DNA of 64,000 bases. It comes from Trueperaceae bacterium. GTDB lineage: Bacteria > Deinococcota > Deinococci > Deinococcales > Trueperaceae. Positions 3,481 to 24,186 of the stretch are shown here, in pieces. Numbering within the stretch: position 1 is the stretch's first letter; each line of letters opens with the position of its first letter. The notes beneath the pieces were generated by a model, which worked only from the letters and a program-made list of their open reading frames with translations, did not search any database and had not been told where the DNA came from. Both the position numbers and the translations under genes were made by a program. The stretch spans positions 3,424,001-3,488,000 of the forward strand of contig OZ243913.1 in the NCBI GenBank assembly GCA_965213705.1, written 5' to 3'.

Positions 3481-3559
3481 TGGGTGAAGGGTTTCTTTGG
3501 CGAGGTCGTTTGGGCTGGCGAGGTGGCTTCGGAAGGTGGGTGAGTGTTCGCAGGGCTCG

Positions 3560-5384: not shown

Positions 5385-6278
5385 TTAACAGGCAAAACAT
5401 TTCAAAGCTTTAGCCCTGGCAAAAATACTCTTTTTTGAAATTTTCGCGCCGCCCCCGCGAGCAGCATTTTCCGCTCCGGCAGCCACCCCGAGTTGCATTG
5501 CTCGTTCCAAAGACCAACCCTCGGCTCTTGCCCACAAAAAGGCGGCCAATAAGCTGTCGCCTGAGGCGACCGGGTTGAGCACACGCACCTTGGGAGCCGG
5601 GCAAACCAGGGTTTTTTCACCGACGTAGGCGGCTCCTTCATCTCCGAGCGTCAGGAGTATGGGCACACCGTAGCTTTCATATAGGGTCTGGGCTTCGCTG
5701 AGACCGTTACTCTCAACTTGCAAAAGACTTGCTAGTTCTGAGCGGTTGGGTTTGACAAGGGATACACCCGCCTCGAGCGCCGCCCGAAGTCCCTTGCCGC
5801 TCGAGTCCACCACGGGTTTGTTAGCGAATTCTTTGAGAACTTCACGAAAATCGGCAGGCGTGATTCCCGCGGGAAGGCTGCCAGAAATGATGAGTCGACC
5901 CTCCGGCAAGCGCCTCAACAAGTTGCGCCATTCGCCAATAGAAACGACCGGACCTTTCTCGTATACCTCGGTCGGATGGGCGCGTCCGTCCAGCAGGATG
6001 TGGCACTCGCGCGTTTCGCCCCCGACCTCCTCAAAAGTACCCTTTAACCCTTCTCGCTCAAGCAAGTGGCGAAACTTCCGGCCGTTAAAACCGCCTAAGA
6101 ACCCTGCTACTGTAGCCTCGGCTCCCAGCGTCTTGAGCACCCGCGCTACGTTGACGCCCTTGCCGCCTGCAACTTCGCGCACGCTTCCTACGCGGTGGAG
6201 CGTTTGGGGTGTGAGGATTTGGCCCAACTCAAGTGTACGGTCGAGCGCCAAGTTGGGCGTCAAGCTGACAAAGGACAC
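5385..6278 (-). CDS. 1-phosphofructokinase / tagatose-6-phosphate kinase family (PfkB/LacC)
   Basis: TPNLALD, GGKGVNVARVL, KPNRSEL and NPVASGDS motifs; GTG start 6278 right after the DeoR stop. Confidence 0.85.
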   Translation of the reverse strand: MSFVSLTPNLALDRTLELGQILTPQTLHRVGSVREVAGGKGVNVARVLKTLGAEATVAGFLGGFNGRKFRHLLEREGLKGTFEEVGGETRECHILLDGRAHPTEVYEKGPVVSIGEWRNLLRRLPEGRLIISGSLPAGITPADFREVLKEFANKPVVDSSGKGLRAALEAGVSLVKPNRSELASLLQVESNGLSEAQTLYESYGVPILLTLGDEGAAYVGEKTLVCPAPKVRVLNPVASGDSLLAAFLWARAEGWSLERAMQLGVAAGAENAARGGGAKISKKSIFARAKALKCFAC

Positions 6279-6279
6279 G

Positions 6280-7107
6280 TCAGCCGCGGGGGGTACTGTG
6301 CTTGATCTCGGCAGGAGTGAGTCCGGAAGCCAATTCGACGGCGAGTCCCGTTTGCTCAAGGAAGCGGAGCCAGTCCCGGCTCAGCCCCTCGTCGGTAATT
6401 AGGCGCTCGATGGCGGCAAGTGGCGCGAACTTAGCGAGCGTCTTCTGCCCAACCTTGCTGTGGTCGGCAATCACGATGGCGCGCTCGGAAACGCTCAAAA
6501 AAGCTCGAGCAACGGCGCTTTCCAGGGGGTCGCGCATCGAAAAGCCGAAGTCCGGCGTGACCCCGCTGCAGCCGACAAAGCTGAGGTCGAGCCGGTACTC
6601 CTGCAACGCGAACTCCACCATCTCGCCGACGAGTTCGTAAGAATAAGTGTTCAGTGCGCCCCCGGTGACGATAACTTTGGTGAGGCTGTGGTTGTACAGT
6701 TCGGTAGCCACGTTGATGGCGTTGGTGATGACCGTAATCGGTCTGCCACGCAGCCAACGTGCCAGTTCGGTGCAGGTGGTTCCGCCAGAGAGGCCTACCA
6801 GCATACCGTCTTCGATGTGCGCGGTCGCCGCCGCTGCAATAGCACGTTTGGCCGTTGCTCCACGCGCCGCGACCGTTTTGAAGTCGTCTAAATAGTCGAT
6901 GGGCGAGCGCACCCGCGCCCCGCCCCAGGTGCGCTCAACCAGCCCGCGCCGCTCAAGAGCCGACAGGTCGCGCCGCACCGTCGCGATGGAAATGCCGAGT
7001 AGCTCGGCGATGCCGGTCGCTTTCAGTACACCATTATGCAAGATGAGGTCGTGAACCCGGTGTTGGCGCTCGCGACTGTTCGAGGTGGCGTTGGCGGTCA
7101 TGTTCAT
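6280..7107 (-). CDS. DeoR/GlpR family regulator (AgaR-like)
   Basis: SIATVRRDLSALE HTH; GGTT, ITNA and ADHSK motifs. Confidence 0.9.
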   Translation of the reverse strand: MNMTANATSNSRERQHRVHDLILHNGVLKATGIAELLGISIATVRRDLSALERRGLVERTWGGARVRSPIDYLDDFKTVAARGATAKRAIAAAATAHIEDGMLVGLSGGTTCTELARWLRGRPITVITNAINVATELYNHSLTKVIVTGGALNTYSYELVGEMVEFALQEYRLDLSFVGCSGVTPDFGFSMRDPLESAVARAFLSVSERAIVIADHSKVGQKTLAKFAPLAAIERLITDEGLSRDWLRFLEQTGLAVELASGLTPAEIKHSTPRG

Positions 7108-7224
7108 AAGCTTGCTCTGAGTCTAAAGCCTACGACCGGGTTATTCAGGTCGACGGTGACCGATTTTGGCTCTTTCGCTCAGTGAGCTGTTGGAGCTGTC
7201 CCCAACTGCGCCTTAAAGTGGTTT

Positions 7225-8058
7225 ATGAACCTTCCCGACCCCGCCTCCCGTCTCCGTGCGGCGCGTGAACAGGGCTACGCGCTGGCCGCCTTCAACGCAG
7301 TCAACTTAGAAACCGCTCAGGCGATCGTCGGTGCGGCGGAAGCGGAGCGCGCGCCCATCATTCTGCAAATTTCGGAAAATGCTGCCCGTTACGGTGGCCT
7401 GAAAGCCCTATTCGGCATTTCCAAAACGTTGCAAGCAGCGGCGGGCGTGCCGGTCATCGTGCATTTTGACCACGCTGAAACCTTCGAGAGCGCACTTCAA
7501 GCTTTGAAGCTCGGCTTCGATTCGGTGATGTTTGAGGGTGCCGACCTCGGCTCGGCGGCGAATGCCCGGCAACTCAAGCTGCTGAGCCGAGCCGCCCATG
7601 ACCGGGGCGCAGCCGTCGAGGGCGAGTTTGAAATTGTCAACAAAGAAGGTCGTGAGGGCAACACGCTCGAGCTTGAACGATTCTCGGAGCTGGCCGCCTC
7701 CTCCGGCTGCGACGTGGTCGCCGTCAACATCGGCAGCGACCATAAGCAGACCGAGAAAGTCGCCCGGCTCGACTTGGCAAGACTCGAGACCATCGCCGCG
7801 CTGGTTCCGCATCCGCTTGTGTTGCACGGCTCGTCGGGCGTTTCAGAAGTCGAATTGTCCCACGCGGTCGAGCGAGGCGTTGCAAAGGTCAACATAGCGA
7901 CCGAGTTGATGGCGGTGTTTACCGACAGCGTGAGAAACAGCCTTTTGGACGTAAACCTGCACGACCCGCGCATTTATTTGGGTGCGGCGCGAGTCGCTTT
8001 TCAGGCGCGAGCGCAGGCACTCATCCGGCTGTTGGGAAGCGCAGGCAAGGCCGGATAA
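7225..8058 (+). CDS. Class II fructose/tagatose-bisphosphate aldolase
   Basis: AFN, HFDH, VEGE, IGSDH, LVLHGSSG and KVNIAT motifs. Confidence 0.9.
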   Translation: MNLPDPASRLRAAREQGYALAAFNAVNLETAQAIVGAAEAERAPIILQISENAARYGGLKALFGISKTLQAAAGVPVIVHFDHAETFESALQALKLGFDSVMFEGADLGSAANARQLKLLSRAAHDRGAAVEGEFEIVNKEGREGNTLELERFSELAASSGCDVVAVNIGSDHKQTEKVARLDLARLETIAALVPHPLVLHGSSGVSEVELSHAVERGVAKVNIATELMAVFTDSVRNSLLDVNLHDPRIYLGAARVAFQARAQALIRLLGSAGKAG

Positions 8059-8059
8059 C

Positions 8060-9787
8060 GAGGGTTTTGCTCGAGTTCGCACTTTCCGGTCGAGGCCAGT
8101 TTTATAGACCGGTCTGCGGCTTCTACCCTGTCCGGCAAGCCATAGGCCCGATTACGCTGTCATGCGACGCGCCTATATCGACACCGTCAAAGAATTACGT
8201 GCACTCGGTCAGGACGCTGTACTCGTTCAAAACGGTGGCTTCGACTTGCTCCTAAACCGCGAAAATGTGGGCAACGGCAGCGAGTGTTACGTCGACGCGG
8301 TGATGCACGAAGTGGCCACGACCCGCGACTGGCAGTGTTTTGCCAGTCCTGCGCCCGCGCTCGACCCCACCAACTACTCAAGCTGGCGCAACTATTACAG
8401 GACGCTGGAAAGCCAGGGTCAAACGGCTTAGGCGCAAGCCGACCGCACTTTTAGAGAAAACCGCGACGCGCACGCCCGCGAGTACCGAGCTGACGGGAGC
8501 GTCGTACTGGCGCAAGATTTCCCCCTACCGGAACGGTCCGACCTCAGCTGTTTGGCGCACGTACAGGCCAAAGCGGAGGGGTAGATTCCGGCCTATTCGG
8601 ACGCTTGCTTTGCCAAACTCTACAGTTTTCCAGAAACGAGCGCCAGCACCCGCGCCTACGAAGGCTGTGCCGACTACGACTACACGGTCGCACCAAACTT
8701 CAGCGTTACCTTCGCGCCACGCGTGGTTTATGTTCCGCAGGGCGACAGCCGCACCATCACCCTGAACGTCGGAGCAGTGAACGGTTACGACGGCCCGGTC
8801 AAGCTGCGCCTCGGCAAATTGCCACCGGGGGTTACGGGTTTGCTTTCCTAAACCGAAGTCACACCCGGCCCGACCACGACGGTCACCCTGACGCTGAACG
8901 TCGGCGCGGGCGTGCCGCTCGGCGAAGAAATTGTCAAGGTTCGGGCGAGCAGCTGGGGCGAGACGATGGTGTATGACTACCGGCTGGTGGTTTACAACCT
9001 GAACGTGCAAACCCTGTGGGTAACCAATGCGGGCAACGGCACCGTTCTCGCTTTTGACGACATAGCCAGCTTGCCAAATTCGAGTTCCCCGCGCAGTATA
9101 GGAGGCGTTCAGCAGCCCTACCCAGATTGTAGCAGCGGCCTCAATTATCCTACCAGCCTCGCGCTGGACGCCTCTGACAATCTGTAGGTCGCCAACTCGG
9201 CGCTCGACTGGAGTGGCGCGCCGCGCCATCGCTCAACTATTTCGCGCCTGGAGCAGCTTCCCCCACAGGCGGTTTTGACTTTCCCACCGTTTACGGCTAC
9301 CCACGGCGAATTGCCTTCGACACTGTTGGTCGCGTGTGGGTCAGCACGACCTTCGGCCTCCTCGTCGCTTATGAGAACCTAACCGGCACGCCGCAAGTTC
9401 ATACGGTTCTGTCGCTGTCCTCGAGCTTGAACCCCATTCGCGGAGTTGCTTTCGACACGGCGGCAACTTATGGCTGAGCGGCAGTTATCAAGGCTCCAGT
9501 CGCGTCGTCAGGCTGGCGGCGGGGAGTTGGCCCACGGGCAGCGCGTTCGCTGTGACAGCCGACAATTCAGTGAACCTGACGCTCAACCAGGGCGTCTACG
9601 ACCCCGACGGTTTGGCCTTCGACGCGACCGGCAACGTGTGGATTGTCAACCAAACGGACGCCACGGGAACAGGTCCTGGAAGTGTGGTCAAGTCGCTGGC
9701 TCGAGTCTCGGCTCCACAAGCTTCCCCGAAGTCAGGCTGAACTCGCCCACACGCTACGCGATAGGTTTGGCCGTCGGTCGGCCTTAA
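8060..9787 (+). pseudogene. Decayed GH114-like glycoside hydrolase with Ig-like and NHL/beta-propeller repeats
   Basis: VLVQNGGF and VDAVMHE; one frame continues through stops at 8429, 8582, 8849 and 9185; NHL-like LALDASDNL*VAN and GLAFDATGNVWIVN; 5' end missing. Confidence 0.65.
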
Positions 9788-10060
9788 GACCTGTTTAAAC
9801 GAGGAGCAAGACATAGATAGGCCTATTAGAAACGCCTATGTATACACTATCCGAGTAGCAAAAAAGGAGGAGCGAAGAGTCCAGAAGGGAAGTCAACTCT
9901 TCCGAACTCTTTTTCAGGTTGTACCTGAACATAGATGTTGGAAAAAGACAGCACAAGCCGGTTCAGAAAGCGAGTCGAGACGTAGTTTGTAGGTCTTTCA
10001 AGCTCCACCGACTCGCTCGAGCATTGTCAAGGCTCTCGATGAACAATAAAGACAATTCAA

Positions 10061-10089
10061 CTTGAGCGATTGAGTCAAATTCGCTCAAG
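10061..10089. promoter_or_regulatory. Candidate operator: inverted repeat CTTGAGCGA-N11-TCGCTCAAG
   Basis: Perfect 9-bp arms just upstream of the putative promoter of the sugar operon; a half-site TTCGCTCA also lies between deoR and the aldolase. Confidence 0.55.
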
Positions 10090-10096
10090 AACCCCC

Positions 10097-10125
10097 TTGT
10101 CTTGCCAAACCGCCCCGCTTAGGAT
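10097..10125 (+). promoter_or_regulatory. Putative sigma70-type promoter TTGTCT-N17-TAGGAT
   Basis: Spacing and position about 55 bp before the first operon gene. Confidence 0.45.
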
Positions 10126-10181
10126 AGTAACAGCGAAATAAATATTACCTGCGAATAACACCACCTCGAGCACGAGAGGAT

Positions 10182-11264
10182 TTGGAGCTTGTGACTGGAC
10201 TGTCTTCACAACGAAACATTTTCTTGGACGAGTTCAAACCGAAAGCGCAGCTCGTCGTCAAAGGGACGCGCGTGGAAGCGCCGCGCTTTCCCGCCATTGA
10301 CGCGCACATCCACTTGGGTCCACCGTTTGGAGGAAGCTGGGCGGATGAGCCTGTCGAAAAGCTGTTGGACGCGCTTGACGCTGCACATGTCGAGGCAGTC
10401 GTGGATTTGGATGGCGGTTGGGGCGAGGATGTTTTGGATAAACACCTGAAGCGTTTCAAAGAACATGCTCCCGAGCGCTTCGTTCATTTTGGCGGGGTGA
10501 ACTGGGCGCAGTGGCCGGAGCGGGGCAACAGCTTCGGCGAGTGGGCGGCGGAGCGTTTTCGTCAGCAAGTCGCGCGAGGGGCGCAAGGGCTCAAAGTTTG
10601 GAAGCCCTTCGGCCTGCATGTTAAAGACCAGCGCGGTGATTTAGTTGCGGTGAATGACGAACGGCTCGAGCCCCTCTGGGACACAGTGGGTGAGTTGGGT
10701 GTTCCCGTCATCATCCACGTCGCCGACCCCGCCGCCTTTTTCGCTCCGGTAGGCGCTCATAACGAGCGCTGGGAAGAATTACACGCCCATCCCAACTGGC
10801 AGTTTACAAGCCCGCCCTTTCCGAGCTTCAAGACAATTATGGAAGACTTCGCCAGTTTGGTCAGGCGTCACGAGAACACGACGTTTATCGGCGCGCACGT
10901 GGGCTGTTACGCGGAAAATTTGGGCTGGGTCGGGTCGCTGCTCGACGAATGCCCCAACTTTTATGTGGACATCAGCGCCCGAATCGGTGAACTCGGGCGG
11001 CAGCCGTACACGGCGCGCAAGTTTTTTATTCGGTACGCCGACCGAATTTTATTCGGCACCGACGCAGACGCTGCGCTCGAGACCTACCAGCTTTACTACC
11101 GCTTTTTGGAAAGCGACGACGAATATTTTAACTACAACCTGAGCGAGGTGCCGCAGCAAGGCCGCTGGTACGCTTACGGACTTTATTTACCGGACGAGGT
11201 TCTTAAACAGGTTTACCACCAGAACGCATCGCGCCTGATACTGCGCGCCGGAGAGGAAGCGTAA
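10182..11264 (+). CDS. Amidohydrolase family protein (candidate de-N-acetylase)
   Basis: IDAHIH, IHVADP, AHVG and ILFGTD metal-site motifs. Confidence 0.8.
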   Translation: MELVTGLSSQRNIFLDEFKPKAQLVVKGTRVEAPRFPAIDAHIHLGPPFGGSWADEPVEKLLDALDAAHVEAVVDLDGGWGEDVLDKHLKRFKEHAPERFVHFGGVNWAQWPERGNSFGEWAAERFRQQVARGAQGLKVWKPFGLHVKDQRGDLVAVNDERLEPLWDTVGELGVPVIIHVADPAAFFAPVGAHNERWEELHAHPNWQFTSPPFPSFKTIMEDFASLVRRHENTTFIGAHVGCYAENLGWVGSLLDECPNFYVDISARIGELGRQPYTARKFFIRYADRILFGTDADAALETYQLYYRFLESDDEYFNYNLSEVPQQGRWYAYGLYLPDEVLKQVYHQNASRLILRAGEEA

Positions 11265-12283
11265 TGCCGGGAGAACACACCTATGAAGAAATCATGTCGC
11301 AGCCCGAAGCCTGGACGGCGGCGCTCGAGCTTCTACGCACGCACTCGGATGAGATTGAGGATGTCAACCCACACGACTACGACGAGGTGATTTTCACAGG
11401 CTGCGGCTCGACCTATTACCTGGCGGTTGCAGCGGCGGCGCTCTTTCAAGAACTCGACGGCGTGTGCGCGCGCGGGCTGCCCGCGTCTGAAATCTGGCTC
11501 TATCCCAAAGGCGCGTACAGCGCGAAGCGCAAGACCTTGCTCGTCGCCGTGAGCCGCTCGGGTACGACCACCGAAACGGTCCGGGCTGTGGAAAGTTTCA
11601 GAAAAAAAGCTGCCGGCAAGGTCGTCACCCTCACCTGCTACCCGCAGAGCGTATTGGCGCGGTTGGGTGACGTCAACCTGGTCTTCGAGTCCGGTCAAGA
11701 AAAGAGCATTGCACAAACGCGGGCATTTAGCGTGCTCTACTTAGCAACCACATATTTAGGACATGTTTGGGCGGGGGCGTCGCTCGAGTCCATAGACTTT
11801 TTGCCTAACGTGTGCAGGCGGCTGCTCGAGACCCACCCGGCCCTCGCCGAACGTTTTGGACGCAACAGCCGCTTCGACCGCTTTTACTTTTTGGGCTCCG
11901 GGCCGCGCTACGGCCTGGCCTGCGAACTCAGCCTCAAGATGAAAGAAATGACCCTGAGCCACAGCGAACCCTTTCACTTTCTGGAGTTCCGGCACGGCCC
12001 GCAGTCGATGGTGAGCGACACGACCCTCATCATCGGCTTGGTCTCGGAGGTCAACGGGATGTACGAGCGCTCCGTACTGCGGGAGATGAAAGAACGCGGC
12101 GCGCACGTGTTAAGCCTCGCTGACAAAAACGCCGATGTCGCTTTTGGGTCGGGCGTGCAGGAGCCTTTACGCAACCCTCTGTACTTGCCCGTCGTTCAAC
12201 TTCTAGCTTTTGAACGTTCCCTTTTCAAGGGGCTCGAGCCCGACCGGCCTCACAACCTGGAGGCGGTCGTCATGCTTGAGTAG
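11264..12283 (+). CDS. Double-SIS sugar-phosphate deaminase/isomerase (AgaS/NagB-II-like)
   Basis: GCGSTYY, SRSGTTTE, LKMKEM and EFRHGP motifs; no glutaminase domain. Confidence 0.85.
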   Translation: MPGEHTYEEIMSQPEAWTAALELLRTHSDEIEDVNPHDYDEVIFTGCGSTYYLAVAAAALFQELDGVCARGLPASEIWLYPKGAYSAKRKTLLVAVSRSGTTTETVRAVESFRKKAAGKVVTLTCYPQSVLARLGDVNLVFESGQEKSIAQTRAFSVLYLATTYLGHVWAGASLESIDFLPNVCRRLLETHPALAERFGRNSRFDRFYFLGSGPRYGLACELSLKMKEMTLSHSEPFHFLEFRHGPQSMVSDTTLIIGLVSEVNGMYERSVLREMKERGAHVLSLADKNADVAFGSGVQEPLRNPLYLPVVQLLAFERSLFKGLEPDRPHNLEAVVMLE

Positions 12284-12337
12284 CCGCTTCCTCAGCCCGT
12301 CGGCCTTCAGCACCCCACACTTCTTAGGAGGTAACAA

Positions 12338-13543
12338 GTGAAACGGTTTCTCGCACTCTGCATTTTATTAAACTGTCTCTCGGCTGCTTTTGCGCAGACC
12401 ACCATCAGCTACGCCATTTGGGACAACAACCAGCTCCCGGCGCACGAGCAAATCGTCGCCGCATTCGAAGAGGAGCAGCCCGACATCAATGTCGATGTTC
12501 AAGTGGTGCCCTGGGGCAACTATTGGGACAAGCTCCAGACCGCCGTCGCGGGCGGCGAAGCTTATGATGTGTTCTGGATGAACGGCCCGAACTTTCCTGT
12601 GTACGCGTCCAAGGGCGTTTTGATGGATTTACAAGACCGCGTGTCGGCGGACAGCCTGGACACGAGCGTCTACCCCCAAGCCCTGGTCGATTTGTACAGC
12701 TTTGAAGGCGACGTGTACGGCCTGCCCAAAGATTTCGACACCATTGGGCTGTACTATAACAAAGATATGTTCGACGCGGCGGGTGTAGAGTACCCCAACG
12801 CCGACTGGACTTGGGATGACCTCAAAACCGCCGCGCAAGCCCTGACCAAAGACGGCAACTGGGGCTTCGCCTCGACCACGGCGGACCAGGCGGGCTACTG
12901 GAACTTCATCTATGAAAATGGCGGTCAGGTCATCAGTGAAGACGGTACGCAAGTTTTAATTGGCGAACCCGCTGCCTGCGCAGCCATCGACTACCTGTAC
13001 AGCTTCGTGCAAGACGGCCTCTCGCCCGACGGCGCGACCATGTCCTCGGTTGATCCCTGGACGCAGCTTTTCCCCGGTGGCCGGGTCGCTATGGTTGTGG
13101 GCGGCTCGTGGTTGGCGCGAACCTACGCCGACGCCGAGCCGACTATCGACGTTGCGCCCTTGCCGCAAGAGGCGCAGCGCGCCACCATCATTCACGGGCT
13201 CGCCAACGTTATGTGGTCCAAAACCGAACACCCCGACGCAGCCTGGGAGTTCGTCAAGTTTTTGGGTAGCGACAAAGCGGCGACCATTTTGGCCCAGTCC
13301 GGCACGGTCATCCCGGCCTACAACGGCTTTCAAGACGCTTGGGTCGAGTCGATTCCCGACATGAACCTGCGCTCCTTTATGGACGCCACCGACTACGCCG
13401 TGCCCTACCCGACAGCGGCGCAAGGTATGGAATGGAACACCAAAGTTGCCGAAGTGCTGGGCGAGGTATGGAACGGCAATCAGCCCATAGAGGGCGCGTG
13501 TCAAGAAGCCGCCAACGCTGCCAACGCTGTATTAAGTCAATAG
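12338..13543 (+). CDS. Sugar ABC transporter substrate-binding protein
   Basis: AGGAGG RBS; signal peptide AFA/Q; LYYNKDMFDAAGV and WTWDD motifs. Confidence 0.9.
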   Translation: MKRFLALCILLNCLSAAFAQTTISYAIWDNNQLPAHEQIVAAFEEEQPDINVDVQVVPWGNYWDKLQTAVAGGEAYDVFWMNGPNFPVYASKGVLMDLQDRVSADSLDTSVYPQALVDLYSFEGDVYGLPKDFDTIGLYYNKDMFDAAGVEYPNADWTWDDLKTAAQALTKDGNWGFASTTADQAGYWNFIYENGGQVISEDGTQVLIGEPAACAAIDYLYSFVQDGLSPDGATMSSVDPWTQLFPGGRVAMVVGGSWLARTYADAEPTIDVAPLPQEAQRATIIHGLANVMWSKTEHPDAAWEFVKFLGSDKAATILAQSGTVIPAYNGFQDAWVESIPDMNLRSFMDATDYAVPYPTAAQGMEWNTKVAEVLGEVWNGNQPIEGACQEAANAANAVLSQ

Positions 13544-13556
13544 GGCAGGAAAATAT

Positions 13557-13594
13557 GGTGAGAGGGGTTAACAAAGGTTGTTACCCCTCTCACC
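13557..13594 (+). terminator. Strong stem-loop after the SBP gene (attenuator or mRNA stabiliser)
   Basis: GGTGAGAGGGGTTAACAA-AGG-TTGTTACCCCTCTCACC. Confidence 0.6.
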
Positions 13595-13634
13595 TCGGTC
13601 CTCAGCTTTTCTAGGTCTTTTCTAAGGGAGTTAC

Positions 13635-14534: not shown

Positions 14535-14574
14535 GTTCGGAATAAACAAGCGCGTGACGGGTAGGAGGTAAAGC

Positions 14575-15459: not shown

Positions 15460-15588
15460 GTCAGTAGTTGGTGGGAGGCGGCGGTAGTCGGCAGTCAGAA
15501 TTCAGTCGTCGGAAGGTGTGAGGTGGTCTGAGGTGAAGCAAGCAGCAACCGGCAAAACGTCCAAACCCTGTTTCCTAAGGAGGAAAGC

Positions 15589-16830
15589 ATGAAAAAAGCC
15601 CTGATTGCACTCGCGCCCTTCCTGCTCAGCGTGTCGCTGGCACAGACCGACATCACCTTTATGGCCTGGGGCTCGCCGGAGGAACTGGCCGTCTGGCAAA
15701 CCATCGCCGACGAGTTTAGCGAGACCCACCCCGACATCACCGTCAACGTAGACGTGAGCGATTGGGACGCTTACTTTAACAAGCTCCAAACGCTCTTCGC
15801 GGGCGGTACCCCGCCCGACGTATTCGCGATGGACGCCCCACTCTACCCGGACTGGCAGTCGCGGGGCGTGTTGAAAAACCTACAGCCCTACCTGGTCACC
15901 GAGCCGGATGTGCTGGACGGCTTTTACCCGGTGACGCTACGAGCTTACGAAACTGAAGACGGTTACTACGGTTTGCCCAGGGACTTTCAAACCATTGTGC
16001 TGTACTACAACAAAGACATGTTCGACGCGGCGGGCGTGGACTACCCTACCGACGACTGGACGCTTGAAGATTTGCGTGACGCCGCCAAAGCTTTAACCCA
16101 AGACACCGACGGCGACGGCACTACCGACCAGTGGGGCTTCTGGGCGGACTTTTACGACCTCGAGCTGTTTTGGGGTGGCGCGATTTTAGGCTCGGGCGGA
16201 CAAATTTTGAGTGGCGACCACACCACGACGCTGCTCGACAAAGAACCCGCCAGAGACGTGTTCCACCTGATCAGCGACATGATGTTCGAGGACGGCTCGG
16301 TGCCGGACACGGGCGAGGCCGAACAGTACGGCTACGACATCTTTTTGGCCGAGCGTGCCGCCATGACTACCATCGGCCACTGGTCGGTGCCCGAGTACAC
16401 CGCGCAGGGCATCAACTTCGATGTAGCCGCCTTCCCGGCAGGACCAAAAGAGCGCGCAACGATTGTGAACAGCGCGGGCTTCGTCATCGCCGACGCTTCA
16501 CCGAACGCCGACGCCGCCTGGGAGTTCGTCAAGTACGCGGTCGGCCCGAGTGGGCAAACACGCCTGGCCGAACTCGGTTTCGCTTTACCCGTGTTGCAGT
16601 CGGTCGCGGAGAGCCCGGTGTTTTTAGAGCAGGGCTCGAACATCAACCAGCAGGTTTATTTGGACGCGCTTCAATACGCCGTGCCCAAACCGTCGTTCAA
16701 AGGCTACGGCGAGTGGTCGGCGGCGGTCGGTGATACCTTAGCACTCGTCTGGTCGGGGGATTTGACGATTGACGAGGCGCTCGACGAACTCGTGCCATTA
16801 GCTAACGACGTTTTGGACGCGAATCAGTAA
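15589..16830 (+). CDS. Second sugar ABC transporter substrate-binding protein
   Basis: Signal peptide SLA/Q; LYYNKDMFDAAGV motif; paralogous to 12338-13543. Confidence 0.9.
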   Translation: MKKALIALAPFLLSVSLAQTDITFMAWGSPEELAVWQTIADEFSETHPDITVNVDVSDWDAYFNKLQTLFAGGTPPDVFAMDAPLYPDWQSRGVLKNLQPYLVTEPDVLDGFYPVTLRAYETEDGYYGLPRDFQTIVLYYNKDMFDAAGVDYPTDDWTLEDLRDAAKALTQDTDGDGTTDQWGFWADFYDLELFWGGAILGSGGQILSGDHTTTLLDKEPARDVFHLISDMMFEDGSVPDTGEAEQYGYDIFLAERAAMTTIGHWSVPEYTAQGINFDVAAFPAGPKERATIVNSAGFVIADASPNADAAWEFVKYAVGPSGQTRLAELGFALPVLQSVAESPVFLEQGSNINQQVYLDALQYAVPKPSFKGYGEWSAAVGDTLALVWSGDLTIDEALDELVPLANDVLDANQ

Positions 16831-17029
16831 GAGGCGCTTGAGGGGTGGTGGAGACTGCTGCTCGAGTTCCCAAACATCTTCATAGGCTATTGAGGGGGAT
16901 TTACTTGCGACCACGTCTTAAATCCCCCGCCCCGAAGGGCCACCCCCTTTTTAAGGGGGCAAGGTCAAAAGCTGTTCGTCTCAAAGCGTTCTCAAAGCCA
17001 ACTCACCCACTTAGGACGGGTTTTATCCT

Positions 17030-17911
17030 ATGGAAACCGGCATCAAACCCTTAGGACGCGAGCGCATTTGGCTCTTCTTGCTCCTCGCGCCAACACTGCT
17101 GGGTCTTCTCTTCGGCGCGTTCGGCTCGGTGCTGGCGAGCGTGTTTATCAGCCTGACGAGTTGGGACTTGCTGACGCCGCCCGAGTGGGTCGGGATTAAG
17201 AATTATCTCGATTTGGTCAGCGACCGGATGTTTCTCAAGTCACTGCGCATCACCACGCAGTTCGCGGCAATGTACGTGCCGGGGGTCATCATCTTGTCGC
17301 TCATCGTGGCGCTCTTGCTCAACCGCAAGATTCGTGGCGTGAGCTTTTTTCGGGTGCTGTTTTTCTTGCCGGTGATTTCGTCGTCGGTCGCGGTCGGCCT
17401 CTTATGGACTTGGATTTACGCGCAAAACAACGGGCTCTTAAACTACATTATCACCTTCTTAGGCGGCGAGCCGGTGCGCTGGCTGAGCCGCGATTTAGCG
17501 CTCTATTCGGTCACGGTCGTGAACATCTGGGGCGCGGTGGGCGAGGGCATGATTATCTTTTTGGCGGGGCTGCAAGCGGTGCCGCGCGACTATTACGAGG
17601 CGGCCAAGCTGGACGGCGCGAACGGGTTTCAGCTTCTTACCAACATCACCCTGCCTTTAATCGTGCCGAGTATCTTTTTTCAGGGGGTCATCTCGACCAT
17701 CAATGCGTTTCAGGTGTTCGAGTACATTTATATTTTGACGCGGACCTCGAGCGGCGGCTCCACCACCCCGACCCTGGTCTTTACCATCTACCGTAACGGG
17801 TTCAACTACTTCCGCATGGGCCAGGCGAGCGCGCAGGCTATCGTGCTAGCGGTGATTATCTTCTTTTTGACGCTGATTTACTTCCGCATTCAGAAACGTT
17901 GGGTGGTGTGA
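17030..17911 (+). CDS. Carbohydrate ABC permease
   Basis: YYEAAKLDGA motif. Confidence 0.9.
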   Translation: METGIKPLGRERIWLFLLLAPTLLGLLFGAFGSVLASVFISLTSWDLLTPPEWVGIKNYLDLVSDRMFLKSLRITTQFAAMYVPGVIILSLIVALLLNRKIRGVSFFRVLFFLPVISSSVAVGLLWTWIYAQNNGLLNYIITFLGGEPVRWLSRDLALYSVTVVNIWGAVGEGMIIFLAGLQAVPRDYYEAAKLDGANGFQLLTNITLPLIVPSIFFQGVISTINAFQVFEYIYILTRTSSGGSTTPTLVFTIYRNGFNYFRMGQASAQAIVLAVIIFFLTLIYFRIQKRWVV

Positions 17912-17912
17912 C

Positions 17913-18743
17913 GTGGGCGTCAAGACTCGAGACCGCCTCCTCGACGGACTGGCCTACGCGCTGCTGATTCTCGGCGCGCTCGTGATGGTCGGGCCGTTCG
18001 TGTGGATGGTATCGACCTCGCTCAAAGAGCCCGCCGACCAGTTCACGCGCGCCCTCATCCCCAACCCTGTGACGTTTGAAAATTACACGCGGCTGTGGGA
18101 CATCCTCCCTTTTTCACGCCTCATCTGGAACAGCTTCAAAATCGCTTCGATTGCCACCGTCGGACAACTGCTGACCTGTTCGATGGCCGGGTTCGCCTTT
18201 GCAGCGGTCAGGTTCCGGGGGCGAAACGTGCTATTCGTGATGCTCCTGGTCACGCTGATGATTCCCTTTCAGGTGACGCTGATTCCCAACTTTATCGTTT
18301 ACCGCTGGCTGGGATTGTACGGCACGCAGATTCCCCTGTACCTGCCGTCGTTTTTGGGCGGCGCGTTCGGCACGTTCTTGCTCAGGCAATATTTCCTGAC
18401 CATCCCCACCGAACTCGCCGAGGCTGCCCGCATCGACGGGGCCTCGCTGTGGACGATTTACTGGCGTATCTACCTGCCGTTGGCTCGGCCCGCGCTGGCC
18501 GCCCTGGCGATTTTCACCTTTTTGTTTTCGTGGAATGACTTGTTCGGCCCGCTGATCTACTTGCCGAGCGACTTAGAGAAAACGACCCTACCCGTCGGCC
18601 TGGCCCTCTTCCAAGCGCAGTACAGCGGCCGTTGGACGGTGATGATGGCGGGGGTGTTGGTCAGCATCGCGCCGATTATCGTGGTGTTTTTCTTCGCGCA
18701 AAAGCAGTTTATCGAGGGCATTGCGCTGTCGGGGGGGAAGTAA
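17913..18743 (+). CDS. Carbohydrate ABC permease
   Basis: ELAEAARIDGA and WNDLFGPL motifs. Confidence 0.9.
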   Translation: MGVKTRDRLLDGLAYALLILGALVMVGPFVWMVSTSLKEPADQFTRALIPNPVTFENYTRLWDILPFSRLIWNSFKIASIATVGQLLTCSMAGFAFAAVRFRGRNVLFVMLLVTLMIPFQVTLIPNFIVYRWLGLYGTQIPLYLPSFLGGAFGTFLLRQYFLTIPTELAEAARIDGASLWTIYWRIYLPLARPALAALAIFTFLFSWNDLFGPLIYLPSDLEKTTLPVGLALFQAQYSGRWTVMMAGVLVSIAPIIVVFFFAQKQFIEGIALSGGK

Positions 18744-18811
18744 GAAGCGAGGAATTAACTGTTAGCTAAAGGCTAAAAGCCAAAAGCTAAAAGTTCATAA
18801 AGGAGTAGTCA

Positions 18812-20659
18812 ATGAAACGTTGGTTTACAGTCATCTTCATCCTAGCTCTGGCAGGCGTCGCCGTGGCGCAGGAGAGTCCGCGAGAGCGGATTCGGAATCT
18901 CGAGGATTACGTGGTGTACTACGGGAAGGGGAAGCTCGAGGCCCTGTCCACCCATGACCTCGCCATCGTGCAACCGCTCAAGCTGTCTGCGGCGGACGTT
19001 GCGTACTTGCACGAGCGGGGGACGCTCGTCGTCGCTTACTTGAGCCTGGGCGAGGCGGAACCCAGCCGCCCCTGGTACGCGGACGGGCGGGTCGACCCGC
19101 GCTGGCTGTTGCGCAAAAATCAGGACTGGGGCTCGTACCTGGTGGACGTTCGGCAAGCGGGCTGGCGGAAACTCATGGTCGAGCTGACCGGCGAGTTTTT
19201 GGACAAGGGCTTCGACGGGGTTTTTATGGACACCGTTGACACCGTCGTCAGCTATCCCGAAACCACCTCGAGCATGGTTGAGCTGATTAGAACTTTACGC
19301 GCAACCTACCCGGACGCCCTGCTCGTCCAAAACCGCGGTTTTACCGTGATTGACGAGGTCGCAGAGGTCATCGACGCACTCATGTTTGAAAGCCTGACGG
19401 GGTCTTATGATTTCAGCGACGACAGCTACGTCTACGCCGACAACAGCTTTACCGCCGAGCAGATGGTGGATTTGAAAGAGCGCACTGGCCTGGTGATTCT
19501 GGCGCTCGACTACGCCGACACGCCTGCAATGGCCTACCGCGCGGTGGCGGCGGCGAAGGGTTACGGTTTCGTACCCGCCGTCTCGACGATTTTGTTAGAT
19601 GAGATTCCTGAATATGGGTTGGCGGCGGGTGGCCCCGACGACATTCGCGTTACCGACATTTCGGTGCAGAGCGCCGGGACGCAGACGGCGATTGTGGTGA
19701 AGCTCGAGAACGTTGGCCTGAGCCCCTCGGGGCGTGTGCCGGTGAGTCTGACGGTGGACGGCGAGCAGATTGCCACCGAAACGTACGAAAGCTTAGGCAT
19801 CGGCGAGCAAAAAAGCTGGCGCGCGCCTTGGGAGAGTGCGACCGAAACGGCCTCGATACGCGCGACGGCGTTTTCTTTGAGCGATAAAAAAGCGGGGAAC
19901 AACAGCCTCAGTCTCAATCATTTGGCTGAAACGGTTGCCGAAGAACCTATTTTGCCCCCCGACCAGCAAAAGCGTCGCCCCGCGCATAACGGCCCCGACC
20001 TGGTGGCGAAGGCGTTAACTGAGCCGTTGACCATCGACGGCGACCTTTCAGACTGGGACGACATGCCTTGTACTGAGGTGAATACGCTCGAGCAGCTTAC
20101 CCTAGGCGACCCGGACGACTGGACCGGGCCGGACGACCTCGGAAGCCACGTTTGCTACGCCTGGGATGCGGACAATCTCTATGTGGGCTTTGAGGTGATG
20201 GATGACACCTTTGTGCAAACTCACACCGGCTCGTTGCTGTGGCGCGGCGACCACGTGGAACTGTGGTTTGACACGCAACTTCAACTCGACTTTGCTTCGG
20301 CGAAAGCGGGTAGCGACGACTTTCAACTCGGCCTCAGTCCAGGTGACTGCGCGGGCGGGGCCGAGCCGGACATCTTCATCTGGACACCATCGCGCTTGCG
20401 CGAGGAGTATGACGGCGTCATCGAATACGCTGTGCAATGCTCCAACACGGGCTACCGCGCCGAGATGCGTTTGCCCGCCACCGTTTTGACCGGCCTCAAG
20501 CTCGTCACCGGCCACGCCCTCGGTGCAAGTTTCGACCCAAGCGACACCGACACGCTCGGCAGTAGCGAGCAGGAGATGATGCTGTCGACCGCACCCGATA
20601 CGCAATGGGGTACGCCGACACTGTGGAACAACCTCGTGCTCGAGGGCGACCTGCCGTGA
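18812..20659 (+). CDS. Secreted GH114/GH166-type endo-alpha-1,4-polygalactosaminidase with CARDB-like and CBM9-like domains
   Basis: Signal peptide; YLSLGEAE, GFDGVFMDTVD, LVQNRGF and MFES; ENVG Ig-like segment; IDGDLSDW, WDADNLY and GDHVELWFD sugar-binding domain. Confidence 0.75.
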   Translation: MKRWFTVIFILALAGVAVAQESPRERIRNLEDYVVYYGKGKLEALSTHDLAIVQPLKLSAADVAYLHERGTLVVAYLSLGEAEPSRPWYADGRVDPRWLLRKNQDWGSYLVDVRQAGWRKLMVELTGEFLDKGFDGVFMDTVDTVVSYPETTSSMVELIRTLRATYPDALLVQNRGFTVIDEVAEVIDALMFESLTGSYDFSDDSYVYADNSFTAEQMVDLKERTGLVILALDYADTPAMAYRAVAAAKGYGFVPAVSTILLDEIPEYGLAAGGPDDIRVTDISVQSAGTQTAIVVKLENVGLSPSGRVPVSLTVDGEQIATETYESLGIGEQKSWRAPWESATETASIRATAFSLSDKKAGNNSLSLNHLAETVAEEPILPPDQQKRRPAHNGPDLVAKALTEPLTIDGDLSDWDDMPCTEVNTLEQLTLGDPDDWTGPDDLGSHVCYAWDADNLYVGFEVMDDTFVQTHTGSLLWRGDHVELWFDTQLQLDFASAKAGSDDFQLGLSPGDCAGGAEPDIFIWTPSRLREEYDGVIEYAVQCSNTGYRAEMRLPATVLTGLKLVTGHALGASFDPSDTDTLGSSEQEMMLSTAPDTQWGTPTLWNNLVLEGDLP

Positions 20660-20699
20660 CAGCTTGAAAAACGAAAACCAATCCGAAAGGAATTCCGAC

Positions 20700-22040
20700 A
20701 TGCCCAAAGTAACCCTTATCGGCGCAGGCAGCGCGGTCTTCGCGGCCGAAATCATGAAAGACATTCTCGTCACACCCGGCTTAGAGTCTGGCACCTTTGC
20801 CCTGGTCGACATCGACGAACGGCGGCTCGAGGTCGCCCACCAAATGGCCGAATGGTTGGTCGAGAAAAGTGCCCGCGACTGGTCGGTAGAGGCTTCGACG
20901 GACAGAGCGAAGGTGCTCAGCGGCACCGACTACCTCGTTAACTCGATTGAGGTTGCGGGACTCGCCAACGTGCGGCACGACTACGACATCCCCATGAAAT
21001 ACGGGGTCGACCAAGCCATCGGCGACACCATCGGGCCGGGTGGTCTGTTCAAGGCGCTGCGAACGCTGCCCGCTTGGCTGGAGATTCTCGCCGACACCGA
21101 ACGCCTCGCGCCGAAGGCGCTGGTGTTGAACTACACCAACCCCATGTCCCTGACGGTGCTGACGGGCGTACGCGCCTCGAGTTTGCCCATCGTCGGGTTG
21201 TGTCACTCGATTCAGCACACGACGCAGCAGTTGGCAGAATACCTGGACGTTCCTTACGACAACATCGACTGGCAAGGCGCGGGCATCAATCACCTCGCTT
21301 GGATTACCAAGCTCGAGCAAGATGGGCAAGACCTCTACCCGGTGCTGCGCAAACGCCTCGAAGAACAGCCCGTGCTTTTTGAGCGCGACCCTGTGCGTTT
21401 CGAGATGATGAAGCATTTGGGCGCGTTTGTCACCGAGTCAAGCGGGCACACGTCCGAGTACACGGCGTATTTTCGCAAGCGCCCCGACCTGATTAAAAAG
21501 TATATGCGGAGCGGTTACTTGGGCGAGAGTGGTTATTACGCTAATAACTGGCCCAAATGGCGCGAAAATCATTTGCAAGAACTGCGAGACATTAGGGTGG
21601 GCAAAGAAAAATACGAACTGAAACGCGGCCCCGAGTACGCCTCGCGCATCATTGAGGCAGTGGAGACGGGCACGCCCCAAGTCATCTACGGCAACGTACC
21701 CAACACCGGACTTATCGACAACCTGCCGCAAAACGGGGTGGTCGAAGTCGCTTGCCTGGTGGACCGAAAAGGCGTGCAGCCGACCCACTTCGGGGCGCTG
21801 CCGACGCAGTTGGCGAACCTAGACCGGCAACACATGGCCTTTCACGACCTGGTCGCGACCGCCGTTTTGGAACAAGACCGCACCGCCGCCGTCCACGCGC
21901 TGATGTGCGACCCGCTGACGGCGGCGGTGTGTTCGCTATCCGAAATACGGCAACTGTTCGATGAGATGGCGGTGGCGGAGAAAGCGTACCTGCCTGCGTT
22001 CGTAAATCTCGGCGCTGAGAAGGAAACGGTGAGGGTTTGA
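20700..22040 (+). CDS. GH4 NAD-dependent glycosidase (alpha-galactosidase MelA-like)
   Basis: IGAGS, GDTIGPGG, NYTNP, GLCHS and GINH motifs. Confidence 0.9.
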   Translation: MPKVTLIGAGSAVFAAEIMKDILVTPGLESGTFALVDIDERRLEVAHQMAEWLVEKSARDWSVEASTDRAKVLSGTDYLVNSIEVAGLANVRHDYDIPMKYGVDQAIGDTIGPGGLFKALRTLPAWLEILADTERLAPKALVLNYTNPMSLTVLTGVRASSLPIVGLCHSIQHTTQQLAEYLDVPYDNIDWQGAGINHLAWITKLEQDGQDLYPVLRKRLEEQPVLFERDPVRFEMMKHLGAFVTESSGHTSEYTAYFRKRPDLIKKYMRSGYLGESGYYANNWPKWRENHLQELRDIRVGKEKYELKRGPEYASRIIEAVETGTPQVIYGNVPNTGLIDNLPQNGVVEVACLVDRKGVQPTHFGALPTQLANLDRQHMAFHDLVATAVLEQDRTAAVHALMCDPLTAAVCSLSEIRQLFDEMAVAEKAYLPAFVNLGAEKETVRV

Positions 22041-22114
22041 GGATTGAGTTCCAAGGCCGTTTAGGCTTGCGGCCAAGGGTATGCTGAGGGCTGAACTTTG
22101 TTGAGGCTTAGATC

Positions 22115-23260
22115 GTGCTGAAACCCAAACTGCTCTACTTTCTTTACTACGCCGCTGCCGCCTCGCTGCTGCCTTTTCTAGTGCTTTACTACGAACGTCT
22201 GAGCTTGTCCGGGCAACAGGTCGGCGTGTTGTGCGCGCTTTTACCGCTGGCAACGCTGCTTGGGGTACCGTTGTGGAGCACGGCCGCCGACCTGTTGCAG
22301 CGTCACAAAACCTTGATTTTGGTGGCGGTCGGAGGTGCCCTCGCTGCTACGCTGTTGCCCCTTCTGACGACGAGCTACCTGGGTTTGCTGGTGGTAGTAG
22401 GGGCACTGTCACTGTTTACCGCGCCCATTATGCCACTCGTTGACCACCTGACCCTGACGCTACTTCAAGACCAAAAGAGTCGCTACGGTGCCTTGCGCCT
22501 CTGGGGCGCAGTCGGTTGGGGAGTGGCGGCCCCCATCACGGGTTTTCTGACCGAGCAAAGTGGGCTGCGCTGGGCCTTTTTCGTCGCTTTCGGCTTGCTG
22601 GGCTTGCTCTGGAGCGTGAGCTACACCCTGCCCAAAATCGGGGACGGGCGAGCTACGGAACACGCTCGAGACTTGCGCGGGTTCCTGACGCCTACCTGGA
22701 CGAACTTTCTGCTGGCGGCCTTTACGGGAGGCGTCTGCTTGGCGGTGAGCAGCAACTTTTTATACCTCCACATGGCCGCTTTGGGTATCAGTCCGACCCT
22801 CGTCGGCCTCGCGCTGACGGTCGCCACGGTGAGCGAGCTGCCGGTTTTTTGGTTCTCCGGCCGACTGTTGAAGCGCTATCCTGCCTCGGCGCTGCTCGCG
22901 CTCGCGCTGTTCGTTTTTTCGGTGAGGTCGCTGCTGTATGCGTTCGTGCTCGAACCTTGGCTTCTTTTGGCCGTTCAATTGCTCCACGGCGCGACCTTTT
23001 CGCTGCTGTGGGTCGCGGGAGTAGCTTACGCGGATGAGTTGGCCCCCGGTGGGATGGGCGCGACGGCGCAGGGTTTGTTTACCGCCACGGTTTTGGGGCT
23101 GGGCAGCGCTGTCGGCGCGCTGGTCGGCGGCCTGCTTTACGACGCGCTCGGGGCCGCCGCTATGTTTAAGTGGACGGCCGCTGGCGTACTGGCCGTCTGC
23201 GCCTACACCGTACTTATCCTCTCCAACCGTGCCCCGGTGGGGAAAAGGAAGGTTTACTGA
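22115..23260 (+). CDS. MFS transporter (MFS_1-like)
   Basis: YGALRLWGAVGW and QLLHGATF motifs; many hydrophobic segments. Confidence 0.85.
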   Translation: MLKPKLLYFLYYAAAASLLPFLVLYYERLSLSGQQVGVLCALLPLATLLGVPLWSTAADLLQRHKTLILVAVGGALAATLLPLLTTSYLGLLVVVGALSLFTAPIMPLVDHLTLTLLQDQKSRYGALRLWGAVGWGVAAPITGFLTEQSGLRWAFFVAFGLLGLLWSVSYTLPKIGDGRATEHARDLRGFLTPTWTNFLLAAFTGGVCLAVSSNFLYLHMAALGISPTLVGLALTVATVSELPVFWFSGRLLKRYPASALLALALFVFSVRSLLYAFVLEPWLLLAVQLLHGATFSLLWVAGVAYADELAPGGMGATAQGLFTATVLGLGSAVGALVGGLLYDALGAAAMFKWTAAGVLAVCAYTVLILSNRAPVGKRKVY

Positions 23261-23262
23261 GC

Positions 23263-24186
23263 ATGGCTTCCGAATACGACCTGCTCGTCGTCGGTGAAAT
23301 CAATCCCGACCTCGTCTTGCAGGGCGAAGACGTGACACCCACATTTGGACAGGCGGAAAAACTCGTCGACAAGGCGAGTCTGACCATCGGCTCCTCGGCG
23401 GCCATCGCCGCTTGTGGCGCAGCTAGATTGGGGCTTGGCGTGGCGTTCATCGGTTTGGTCGGGGACGACCTGTTCGGCCACTTTATGCTTGAAGCGTTGC
23501 AGGCTCGAGGTGTCGATACGTCCGGCTGCACCGTTACCGCTGCACGCGCCACCGGCTTCAGCGTGATTCTGTCCGAACCCCATGACCGCGCTATCTTGAC
23601 CTTCCCCGGCACCATTACCGAATTGTGCATAACCGATATTGACCTGACTCTGTTGGAGCGAGCCAAACACCTGCACCTGAGCAGCTTTTTCTTGCTCGAT
23701 AAGCTGCGCCCTGACGTGCCCGAGCTGTTCGCACACGCCAAACGCCAGGGCCTGACGACCTCGCTCGACACCAACTGGGACCCGGCAAACAGGTGGCGCG
23801 GCCTAGCGGCAACACTTCGGCACACCGACGTTCTATTTCCTAACCAGCAAGAAGCCTTGCGTATCGCCGGGCGAGACGAACTCGGCCTCGCCCTCGACCT
23901 TCTTGCCGAGCAAGTACCGACGCTGGCGGTCAAATTGGGGCTCGAGGGGGGCGTTGCCCGGCAAGGCGGTCACGAAGTGCGGGCTCCGGTCGTCCCGGTC
24001 GAAGTCGTCGACACGACCGGGGCCGGAGACTCGTTCGACGCCGGCTTTCTCTACGGCTATTTGCAGGGTTGGTCTTTAGAAACAAACTTGCGTTTCGCCT
24101 GCGCTTGTGGTTCGCTCTCGACAAGAGGGATGGGTGGCACAGATCGGCAGGCAACGCTTGAAGAGACTTTAGGTGTTCTAGCATAG
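23263..24186 (+). CDS. PfkB/ribokinase family sugar kinase
   Basis: VVGEINPD and VVDTTGAGDSF motifs. Confidence 0.9.
   Translation: MASEYDLLVVGEINPDLVLQGEDVTPTFGQAEKLVDKASLTIGSSAAIAACGAARLGLGVAFIGLVGDDLFGHFMLEALQARGVDTSGCTVTAARATGFSVILSEPHDRAILTFPGTITELCITDIDLTLLERAKHLHLSSFFLLDKLRPDVPELFAHAKRQGLTTSLDTNWDPANRWRGLAATLRHTDVLFPNQQEALRIAGRDELGLALDLLAEQVPTLAVKLGLEGGVARQGGHEVRAPVVPVEVVDTTGAGDSFDAGFLYGYLQGWSLETNLRFACACGSLSTRGMGGTDRQATLEETLGVLA

Follow-up and report, generated by a model that had tools for sequence, protein, structure and literature searches.

Pel and galactosaminogalactan (GAG), α-1,4-linked polymers of galactosamine (GalN) and N-acetylgalactosamine (GalNAc), occur commonly in biofilms, and both their synthesis and their hydrolases have been studied in depth. 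No description of a catabolic locus for them was found in the open-access literature. The locus considered here occupies positions 5385-24186 of a window (the whole stretch of DNA analysed, 64,000 nucleotides) from a Trueperaceae bacterium (GenBank assembly GCA_965213705.1, contig OZ243913.1, positions 3,424,001 to 3,488,000). It is best read as a DeoR-controlled catabolic locus for such polymers, with a probability of roughly two in three. This reading is built on observations of which genes are present and to which families they belong, of catalytic residues and synteny, and of a common operator motif, from which each substrate assignment is deduced, least firmly for the amidohydrolase, GH4 and PfkB steps.

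Among described systems, the aga/gam pathway of E. coli, streptococci, and Shewanella (AgaA, AgaS, LacC/KbaZ, KbaY/LacD, AgaR) has a DeoR-family repressor and a SIS-fold deaminase in common with the locus. Its steps from galactosamine-6-phosphate (GalN-6-P) through tagatose-6-phosphate and tagatose-1,6-bisphosphate to triose phosphates, as given in passages of PMC12118421, match the chemistry proposed here. The locus differs by its predicted uptake of oligomers through ATP-binding cassette (ABC) systems, where the aga/gam pathway uses a phosphotransferase system or AgaP, and by its pairing of an exported endo-hydrolase with an intracellular enzyme of glycoside hydrolase (GH) family 4. Furthermore, its SIS protein lies outside the AgaS family, an Amidohydro_2 protein takes the place of AgaA/NagA, and the sugar kinase is of the PfkB or BadF type. 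The chitin cluster of Thermococcus kodakarensis encodes ChiA, Dac, GlmA, and GlmD (PMC3512248, in part). It likewise gathers an endo-hydrolase, a deacetylase, an exo-hexosaminidase, and a GlmD-type SIS deaminase, whereas the present polymer would be α-galacto instead of β-gluco, the glycosidases are of the PF03537 and GH4 types, and a further kinase and aldolase would serve the C4 epimer. The Thermococcus steps follow one another in the order just named.

The solved sequences closest to the exported hydrolase are PelA-h (GH166), GH114 enzymes (Ega3 and that of Pseudomonas sp. 881), and GH191 enzymes (Env-GH191, TM1410), whose catalytic Asp and Glu positions it retains. In contrast to PelA-h, it is a stand-alone, exported protein with a CBM9-like domain (CBM, carbohydrate-binding module), encoded in a catabolic operon, neither fused to a deacetylase nor located in a pel/GAG biosynthesis cluster. 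Such clusters contain the same hydrolase superfamily (four of 20 control PF03537 loci stand beside pelF and agd3-like genes, three of them with pelG), whereas the present locus holds import and central-metabolism genes and no such glycosyltransferase or exporter. The enzymes of Pseudomonas sp. 881 and Streptomyces griseus were reportedly isolated as polymer degraders. Both come from native bacterial sources (PMC12054363), so that bacterial breakdown of the polymer as such is nothing new. The same paper describes GH114, GH135, GH166, and GH191 as endo-galactosaminidase families. The end chemistry is also known, while the polymer-to-tagatose assembly and the enzyme families for four of its steps appear undescribed.

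The features of the locus are as follows.

5385-6359, minus strand: 1-phosphofructokinase (1-PFK)/LacC-family kinase, probable start near 6278; proposed tagatose-6-phosphate kinase
6280-7107, minus strand: DeoR-family repressor (PF00455 and PF08220)
7157-7181, no strand: palindromic operator TGAnCGA-N11-TCGnTCA in the gap between the divergent deoR and aldolase genes
7225-8058, plus strand: class II aldolase (PF01116); proposed tagatose-1,6-bisphosphate aldolase
8138-9728, plus strand: decayed second PF03537-like hydrolase gene with an NHL-repeat tail, recognised by homology to an L051 protein
10063-10087, no strand: palindromic operator upstream of the main operon, ranked top in a matrix scan of the genome
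10182-11264, plus strand: uncharacterised Amidohydro_2 metallohydrolase (PF04909); proposed GalNAc de-N-acetylase
11264-12283, plus strand: two-domain SIS protein, GlmD/TM0813-like; proposed galactosamine-6-phosphate deaminase/isomerase
12338-15459, plus strand: sugar ABC system 1 (substrate-binding protein (SBP) 12338-13543; permeases 13635-14534 and 14575-15459)
15589-18743, plus strand: sugar ABC system 2 (SBP 15589-16830; permeases 17030-17911 and 17913-18743)
18812-20659, plus strand: exported endo-α-1,4-galactosaminidase-like hydrolase with a signal peptide, PF03537 barrel, CARDB-like linker, and CBM9-like domain
20664-22040, plus strand: GH4 enzyme, NAD-dependent, of the α-galactosidase subfamily, probable ATG at 20700; proposed exo-α-galactosaminidase
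22115-23260, plus strand: major facilitator superfamily (MFS) transporter (PF12832)
23170-24186, plus strand: PfkB kinase (PF00294), probable ATG at 23263; proposed galactosamine 6-kinase

The main plus-strand run, from the amidohydrolase through PfkB, covers 10182-24186. Scans of open reading frames (ORFs) and family profiles recovered every gene listed in the original prediction at its position; the MFS transporter and the decayed hydrolase gene had been overlooked. No glycosyltransferase was seen among the ORFs scanned in the interval, as had been stated, and profile scans of these ORFs gave neither a PelF glycosyltransferase nor a PelG exporter. In the proposed pathway, the exported hydrolase would cut the polymer into oligomers, which the two ABC systems, sharing an ATPase, would import. 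The amidohydrolase would remove N-acetyl groups, GH4 would free galactosamine (or galactose) from the non-reducing end, and PfkB would convert galactosamine to GalN-6-P. The GlmD-like SIS protein would then yield tagatose-6-phosphate and ammonia, and the LacC-like kinase and the aldolase would lead to triose phosphates. The role would be the scavenging of foreign matrix and, in this host, possibly also the recycling of its own.

The exported hydrolase and its recurring cassette

The hydrolase passes the PF03537 profile with 66 bits (cut-off 27; typical GH114 members reach ~280), and its closest solved relative is PelA-h, in line with the GH114/GH166 type first proposed. This best match in the Protein Data Bank (PDB; 5tcb, E 4.8e-22, or 1.7e-29 with a profile) is followed by 9ep5 (E 1.8e-9) and TM1410 (5e-8), and the order is unchanged with the profile. 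The cut-off of TIGR01370 (TM1410/MJ1477, GH191-like) is not reached (54.6 of 181.25 bits). In the tree, typical GH114 members make up one deep clade and the hydrolase belongs to the other, in which no row is a CAZy reference. The catalytic Asp and Glu (D140 and E193) are invariant in all 42 homologs aligned, out of 77 matches, and E193 aligns with the 5tcb Glu that is Ala in the mutant entry 5tsy. Judged by sequence, the protein is likely, not certainly, an endo-α-1,4-galactosaminidase closest to GH166. Two homologs (L034:9977-13675 and L036:9935-13651) carry a third, GHL10-like domain of ~600 residues, related to uncharacterised clusters common in Acidobacteriota; it gave no match in the host genome.

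The cassette recurs in Trueperaceae, Anaerolineae, Deinococcales, and Actinomycetota. Since the gene set is found in these four bacterial groups and an operator is common to its Trueperaceae versions, the clustering is far beyond chance. A survey anchored on the hydrolase comprised 80 loci, the closest titled one being that of a Trueperaceae genome (79%). Among the 20 loci that head the list, at 41-79% identity and with L031 and L034 counted once, ABC genes occur in 19, SIS in 14, DeoR in 13, GH4 in 12, the amidohydrolase in 11, LacC in seven, NagA in three (all without the amidohydrolase), and a PelF-like glycosyltransferase in none. The other 60 loci, 21 of them with the catalytic domain, have neither SIS nor amidohydrolase; one of these (L091), at 44% similarity, is as close as the Deinococcales members. 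A second, typical GH114 is present in L041, L046, and L047.

The amidohydrolase served as an independent second anchor. It is matched in 15 of 121 Trueperaceae genomes, where the count was made on the six relatives with at least 20 kb of context, the remaining stretches being mostly short contigs. Five of the six hold a PF03537 gene inside the cassette (G109 does not): a typical GH114 in G063, G065, and G081, and a PelA-like one in G004 and G087. In these five genomes it is the sole PF03537 match, and 27 of the 121 genomes have any. Chloroflexota gave a match in 20 of 401 genomes; among 20 loci (19 genomes), SIS and GH4 are each found in 11, LacD in five, a PF03537-like gene in four, and GT4 glycosyltransferase neighbours in five. 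For Actinomycetota (13 of 301 genomes, 12 loci), the counts are GH4 12, SIS 10, MFS 10, LacC seven, and PF03537 one. PF03537 occurs anywhere in the genome in five of the 11 SIS-bearing Chloroflexota versus 51 of 389 others, and in eight of the 12 Actinomycetota cassette genomes versus 48 of 288 others, kin not being independent in the latter comparison. Five remote GH114 genes of the Actinomycetota cassette genomes (L197-L201) have neither cassette genes nor pelF nearby. The expected synteny across Deinococcota and Chloroflexota is thus borne out for the cassette, the hydrolase being missing from several Chloroflexota versions.

In a FastTree tree of 82 PF03537-like domains, nine changes of the cassette label are required, seven of them forced by starred branches, and one clade of cassette hydrolases has as its sister group a clade in which enzymes of pelF-pelG-agd3 loci abound. 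Different PF03537 subfamilies have thus been recruited repeatedly, which is the best evidence for the substrate. The polymer class named in the original prediction gains support from this context and from the common operator; it is still a deduction, and the hydrolase is clearly an optional part of the cassette. The patchy distribution, the grouping of Trueperaceae rows with Anaerolineae, and the lack of an amidohydrolase match in the same-genus genome G001 suggest that the cassette spread horizontally. One locus titled Bacteroidetes (L044) has cassette proteins that group with Anaerolineae rows and is possibly a mis-binned contig.

A protein with DUF4874 and DUF4832 recurs in or near the cassette (L122:2407-4071, L124, L128, L140, L049, L052), beside the PF03537 gene or in its place. 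It gave no meaningful PDB match and is proposed as a candidate for a new type of glycoside hydrolase, acting on the same polymer.

From oligomers to triose phosphates

An ATPase for the two ABC systems is absent from the locus, and MalK-like ATPases are encoded elsewhere in the genome. The best solved relative of system 1 is Lmo0181, and the SBP of system 2 is 37% identical to that of system 1.

The GH4 enzyme exceeds the cut-off of the PRK15076 α-galactosidase model (508.5 vs 486 bits) and has the motif CHSI, compared to CHSV in MelA and CHEV in LplD. In FastTree trees, it lies in a clade that holds neither E. coli MelA nor the MelA-type paralog of the host, and the cassette GH4s form three clades outside that of MelA, except that of L143, which groups with MelA. 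GH4 alone was rejected as a cassette marker: clade-iii and other relatives occur in unrelated contexts in G002, G021, G019, G003, and G036. Many cassette GH4s (L036, L037, L038, L044, L141, L150, L151, L155, L159-L170) have a Glu in a GAGS-x-E-F motif, at a position that is neutral in MelA and in the window enzyme; this Glu might recognise a free amine. Near GH4 or at the cassette end, five Deinococcales loci (L047, L049, L050, L052, L053) encode a Gfo/Idh/MocA protein of ~420 residues, possibly an NAD-dependent, GH109-like glycosidase. Another ABC cluster, 13 kb upstream of the window, includes a 58% homolog of this protein.

The amidohydrolase matches PF04909 only and no NCBIfam model at 1e-8, with no match to Amidohydro_1/TIGR00221 (NagA/AgaA). 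Searches against PDB sequences gave no match. Its model (predicted local distance difference test score, pLDDT, of 85) has uncharacterised folds as nearest neighbours (Z 22.6 and 22.5); Foldseek and VIA-align gave generic Amidohydro_2 folds, and the ESM Atlas unnamed family clusters. The family is large, with 7247 matches among 8000 scored candidates. Some paralogs stand in glycosyltransferase-rich envelope loci (L132, L154, L156, L157). Two others directly precede a zinc dehydrogenase and a class III aminotransferase (L144, L149), and the family is therefore broader than deacetylation. A deacetylase role is proposed on its replacement by NagA, the adjacency to the SIS gene, and the paralogs in glycan-biosynthesis loci. 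For PfkB, no equivalog model is passed; a role as galactosamine kinase is proposed on the need of the pathway and on its replacement by a BadF/NagK-type kinase in five Deinococcales-type loci.

The SIS protein had been called AgaS-like, which proved wrong at the family level. It misses the TIGR02815 cut-off (99.5 of 529.2 bits), is 25% identical to E. coli AgaS, and finds its best matches in GlmD, TM0813, and PH0510; AgaS orthology was rejected. The best HMM (hidden Markov model) is that of GlmD (NF041128), yet the score stays under the equivalog cut-off (164.5 of 580 bits). In a SIS tree whose rows did not include TM0813 or GlmD, AgaS sits on a long separate branch. The motifs ELSLKMKE and EFRHGP align with EGALKLKE/EMKHGP of GlmS and ESALKVLE/GFRHGP of AgaS; their Lys/Glu and His are presumably the catalytic residues of hexosamine-6-phosphate deaminases.

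The kinase at 5385-6359, a single copy in the genome, passes TIGR03168 (219.7 bits, cut-off 216.4) and stays below the LacC (TIGR01231, 109.1 of 409.55) and FruK equivalogs. The locus aldolase has the motif KVNIATE with Ala225, compared to KINTDTD with Asp in the host's housekeeping aldolase. This Ala of the K-x-N-x-(A/D)-T motif is found in all six cassette class II aldolases (the window's and five others), and also in KbaY and GatY. The residue reportedly decides C4 specificity, the change of Asp to Ala opening tagatose cleavage. The corresponding position in E. coli FbaA we take to be Asp288. This Asp sits at the C4-OH of fructose-6-phosphate (PMC5434028, in part). The locus aldolase misses the tagatose model TIGR01858 (150.7 of 443.55) and the fructose equivalogs likewise. 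In related loci, LacD-type aldolases take over (five of the 20 Chloroflexota loci; that of L041 passes PRK12858), and L141 adds a GatZ 48% identical to KbaZ. Elsewhere in the host genome are nagA-nagK-nagB, genes for two PfkA and one more class II aldolase, and a GH4 of the MelA type; a glucosamine route would therefore not need the locus kinase and aldolase. The galacto epimer and the tagatose exit are thus supported by Ala225, the LacD and GatZ replacements, and the separate N-acetylglucosamine route of the host. Of the exit proposed originally, the tagatose chemistry stands as an inference and the AgaS assignment falls. Near two Actinomycetota cassettes (L165, L166), one of them also with a zinc dehydrogenase, lies a pyridoxal phosphate-dependent DSD1-like enzyme, perhaps an alternative oxidative amino-sugar route.

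Several observations weigh against a polymer locus with a tagatose exit. TmGH191 showed no activity on GAG, nor FsGH114 on Pel (PMC12054363), because of which the activity of the hydrolase is not certain, and in a two-membrane cell the polymer would first have to reach this signal-peptide enzyme. No neighbour of the amidohydrolase is characterised (the 50 folds listed do not include NagA), and its paralogs occur in other gene contexts. The closest solved relatives of the SIS protein are glucosamine-6-phosphate deaminases, the PDB matches of the kinase are about equal for FruK and LacC, with FruK slightly better, and the N-terminal QISE of the aldolase resembles the host fructose enzyme (AISE) and not KbaY/GatY (AGTP). 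Moreover, the hydrolase is lacking in 11 of the 12 Actinomycetota cassettes and present in only four of the 11 SIS-containing Chloroflexota loci, and six of these 11 genomes gave no PF03537 match whatever.

The core kept without the hydrolase in these 11 Actinomycetota and seven Chloroflexota loci (DeoR, amidohydrolase, SIS, GH4, ABC, kinases) could mean that the cassette is a general route for galactosamine or for small α-GalN(Ac) or α-Gal glycosides, the hydrolase being accessory and Pel/GAG not the main food; the GH27 and GH36 enzymes that accompany it in L040, L041, and L140 would fit. We consider this unlikely, given the varied PF03537 subfamilies that recur in the cassette, the operators before the G065 GH114 gene and the G004 second-hydrolase remnant (see below), and the excess of PF03537 in Actinomycetota cassette genomes, which are probably kin and not independent.

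A true GlmD, with the locus taking a glucosamine-containing α-glycan to fructose-6-phosphate, would also fit the HMMs and PDB entries that the SIS protein matches best, and the equal nearness of the kinase to FruK and LacC. This is very improbable in view of the NagA/NagK/NagB, PfkA, and aldolase that the host already has, the α-galactosidase subfamily of GH4, LacD and GatZ in related loci, and Ala225. Slightly more remote still is a core that processes galactose-derived sugar-amine (Amadori/Heyns) adducts through a FrlD/FrlB-like kinase and deglycase. SIS deglycases exist, and FrlD is the best match of PfkB (27%) among 14 E. coli reference proteins; against this, the SIS protein matches GlmD-type proteins at 1e-36 versus FrlB-type at 4e-14, FrlB is the most distant row of the SIS tree, and the PF03537 hydrolases would be left unexplained.

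Operators, and scavenging versus recycling

In the 4.25 Mb genome, the operator TGAnCGA-N11-TCGnTCA is matched exactly at two places, 7157 and 10063; this count is circular because the pattern was derived from these two sites. A matrix from nine sites of other genomes ranks the host sites first (10063) and fourth (7157) and places sites at matching positions in G081, G109, and G053. Equivalent operators precede the deoR, aldolase, or amidohydrolase gene in G004, G123, G087, G065, G063, and G075; those of 7157-7181 are seen in G004 and G123, and those of 10063-10087 in G004, G123, G087, G075, G081, G109, and G053. The operator also stands before the GH114 gene of G065 and the second-hydrolase remnant of G004. 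Found before both units, it therefore ties the kinase-aldolase unit to the hydrolase operon, and the DeoR protein is predicted to bind it. The best models of this repressor are GlpR and AgaR, both below cut-off, with 31% identity to E. coli AgaR. In loci from Chloroflexota, Deinococcales, or Actinomycetota, no such operator was found ahead of the cassette genes, and further high-scoring sites in the host indicated no additional sugar operons. Generic promoter and terminator scans of the DNA were at chance level (4 found vs 4.8 expected, and 23 vs 25.9).

The absence of a glycosyltransferase from the locus had been taken to indicate scavenging. This argument was rejected, as the same genome harbors a Pel-like biosynthetic locus (L116, G000:C1:526623-534556), ~2.9 Mb from the cassette. 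It encodes an Agd3-like CE18/CBM87 deacetylase, PelF (181.6 bits, cut-off 100), a membrane protein, a small PelA-like (GH166-like) hydrolase, and a GH114. The membrane protein, 442 residues without a Pfam match, stands where PelG would be expected, and no PelG match was obtained in the host genome. A similar Deinococcota locus is seen in L180 (G140), and Chloroflexota versions (L184, L187, L202) have agd3-like, pelF, and true pelG genes. With its pelF/agd3-like locus, the host may therefore recycle its own matrix. That recycling is the main function, with little foreign scavenging, is quite improbable: PelF is above cut-off in four of 15 other genomes tested, but 11 gave none above cut-off, among them three that carry the cassette and are 96-100% complete (G004, G065, G081); in addition, PelG was not found in the host, and G001 of the same genus gave no amidohydrolase match. 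Scavenging is thus the simpler general reading, now on the grounds of these near-complete relatives, with recycling possible for this host.

The wider proposition, to which we give somewhat less than even odds, is that the locus represents the missing catabolic pathway for Pel and GAG: a mobile cassette for growth on biofilm matrix, present in at least three phyla, with new activities in four families. If so, these activities would be an Amidohydro_2 GalNAc de-N-acetylase, GH4 exo-α-galactosaminidases, a non-AgaS GalN-6-P deaminase, and a PfkB galactosamine kinase, and DUF4832/DUF4874 and the GHL10-like domain would join the candidates for matrix degradation. The locus offers a complete, testable route, with variants in the cultured Meiothermus granaticius and Thermus tenuipuniceus. 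It also brings candidate functions for the large uncharacterised amidohydrolase family, the GH4 clades, and DUF4832/4874, and is a possible source of new biofilm-dispersing enzymes.

The decayed hydrolase gene and the flanks

The seeming gap at 8060-10180 contains the decayed second hydrolase gene (8138-9728). Its 5' part is gone, and it has four in-frame stops and frameshifts. An intact PF03537-like/NHL protein (L051:11364-13847) matches it over its own residues 235-809, with 42-52% identity. Contigs of a second sample cross the gene; in this comparison, made on the best-supported substitutions, no indel appears before 9692 among the variants listed.

Transposase remnants lie on either side of the locus, IS3-like at 3010-4341 and IS5-like at 24395-24961. 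Farther on in the window, restriction/defence-like genes at 37.7-50.3 kb precede four large minus-strand ORFs (51574-61602) that adjoin glmS and, by eye, resemble a Tn7-type transposition module.

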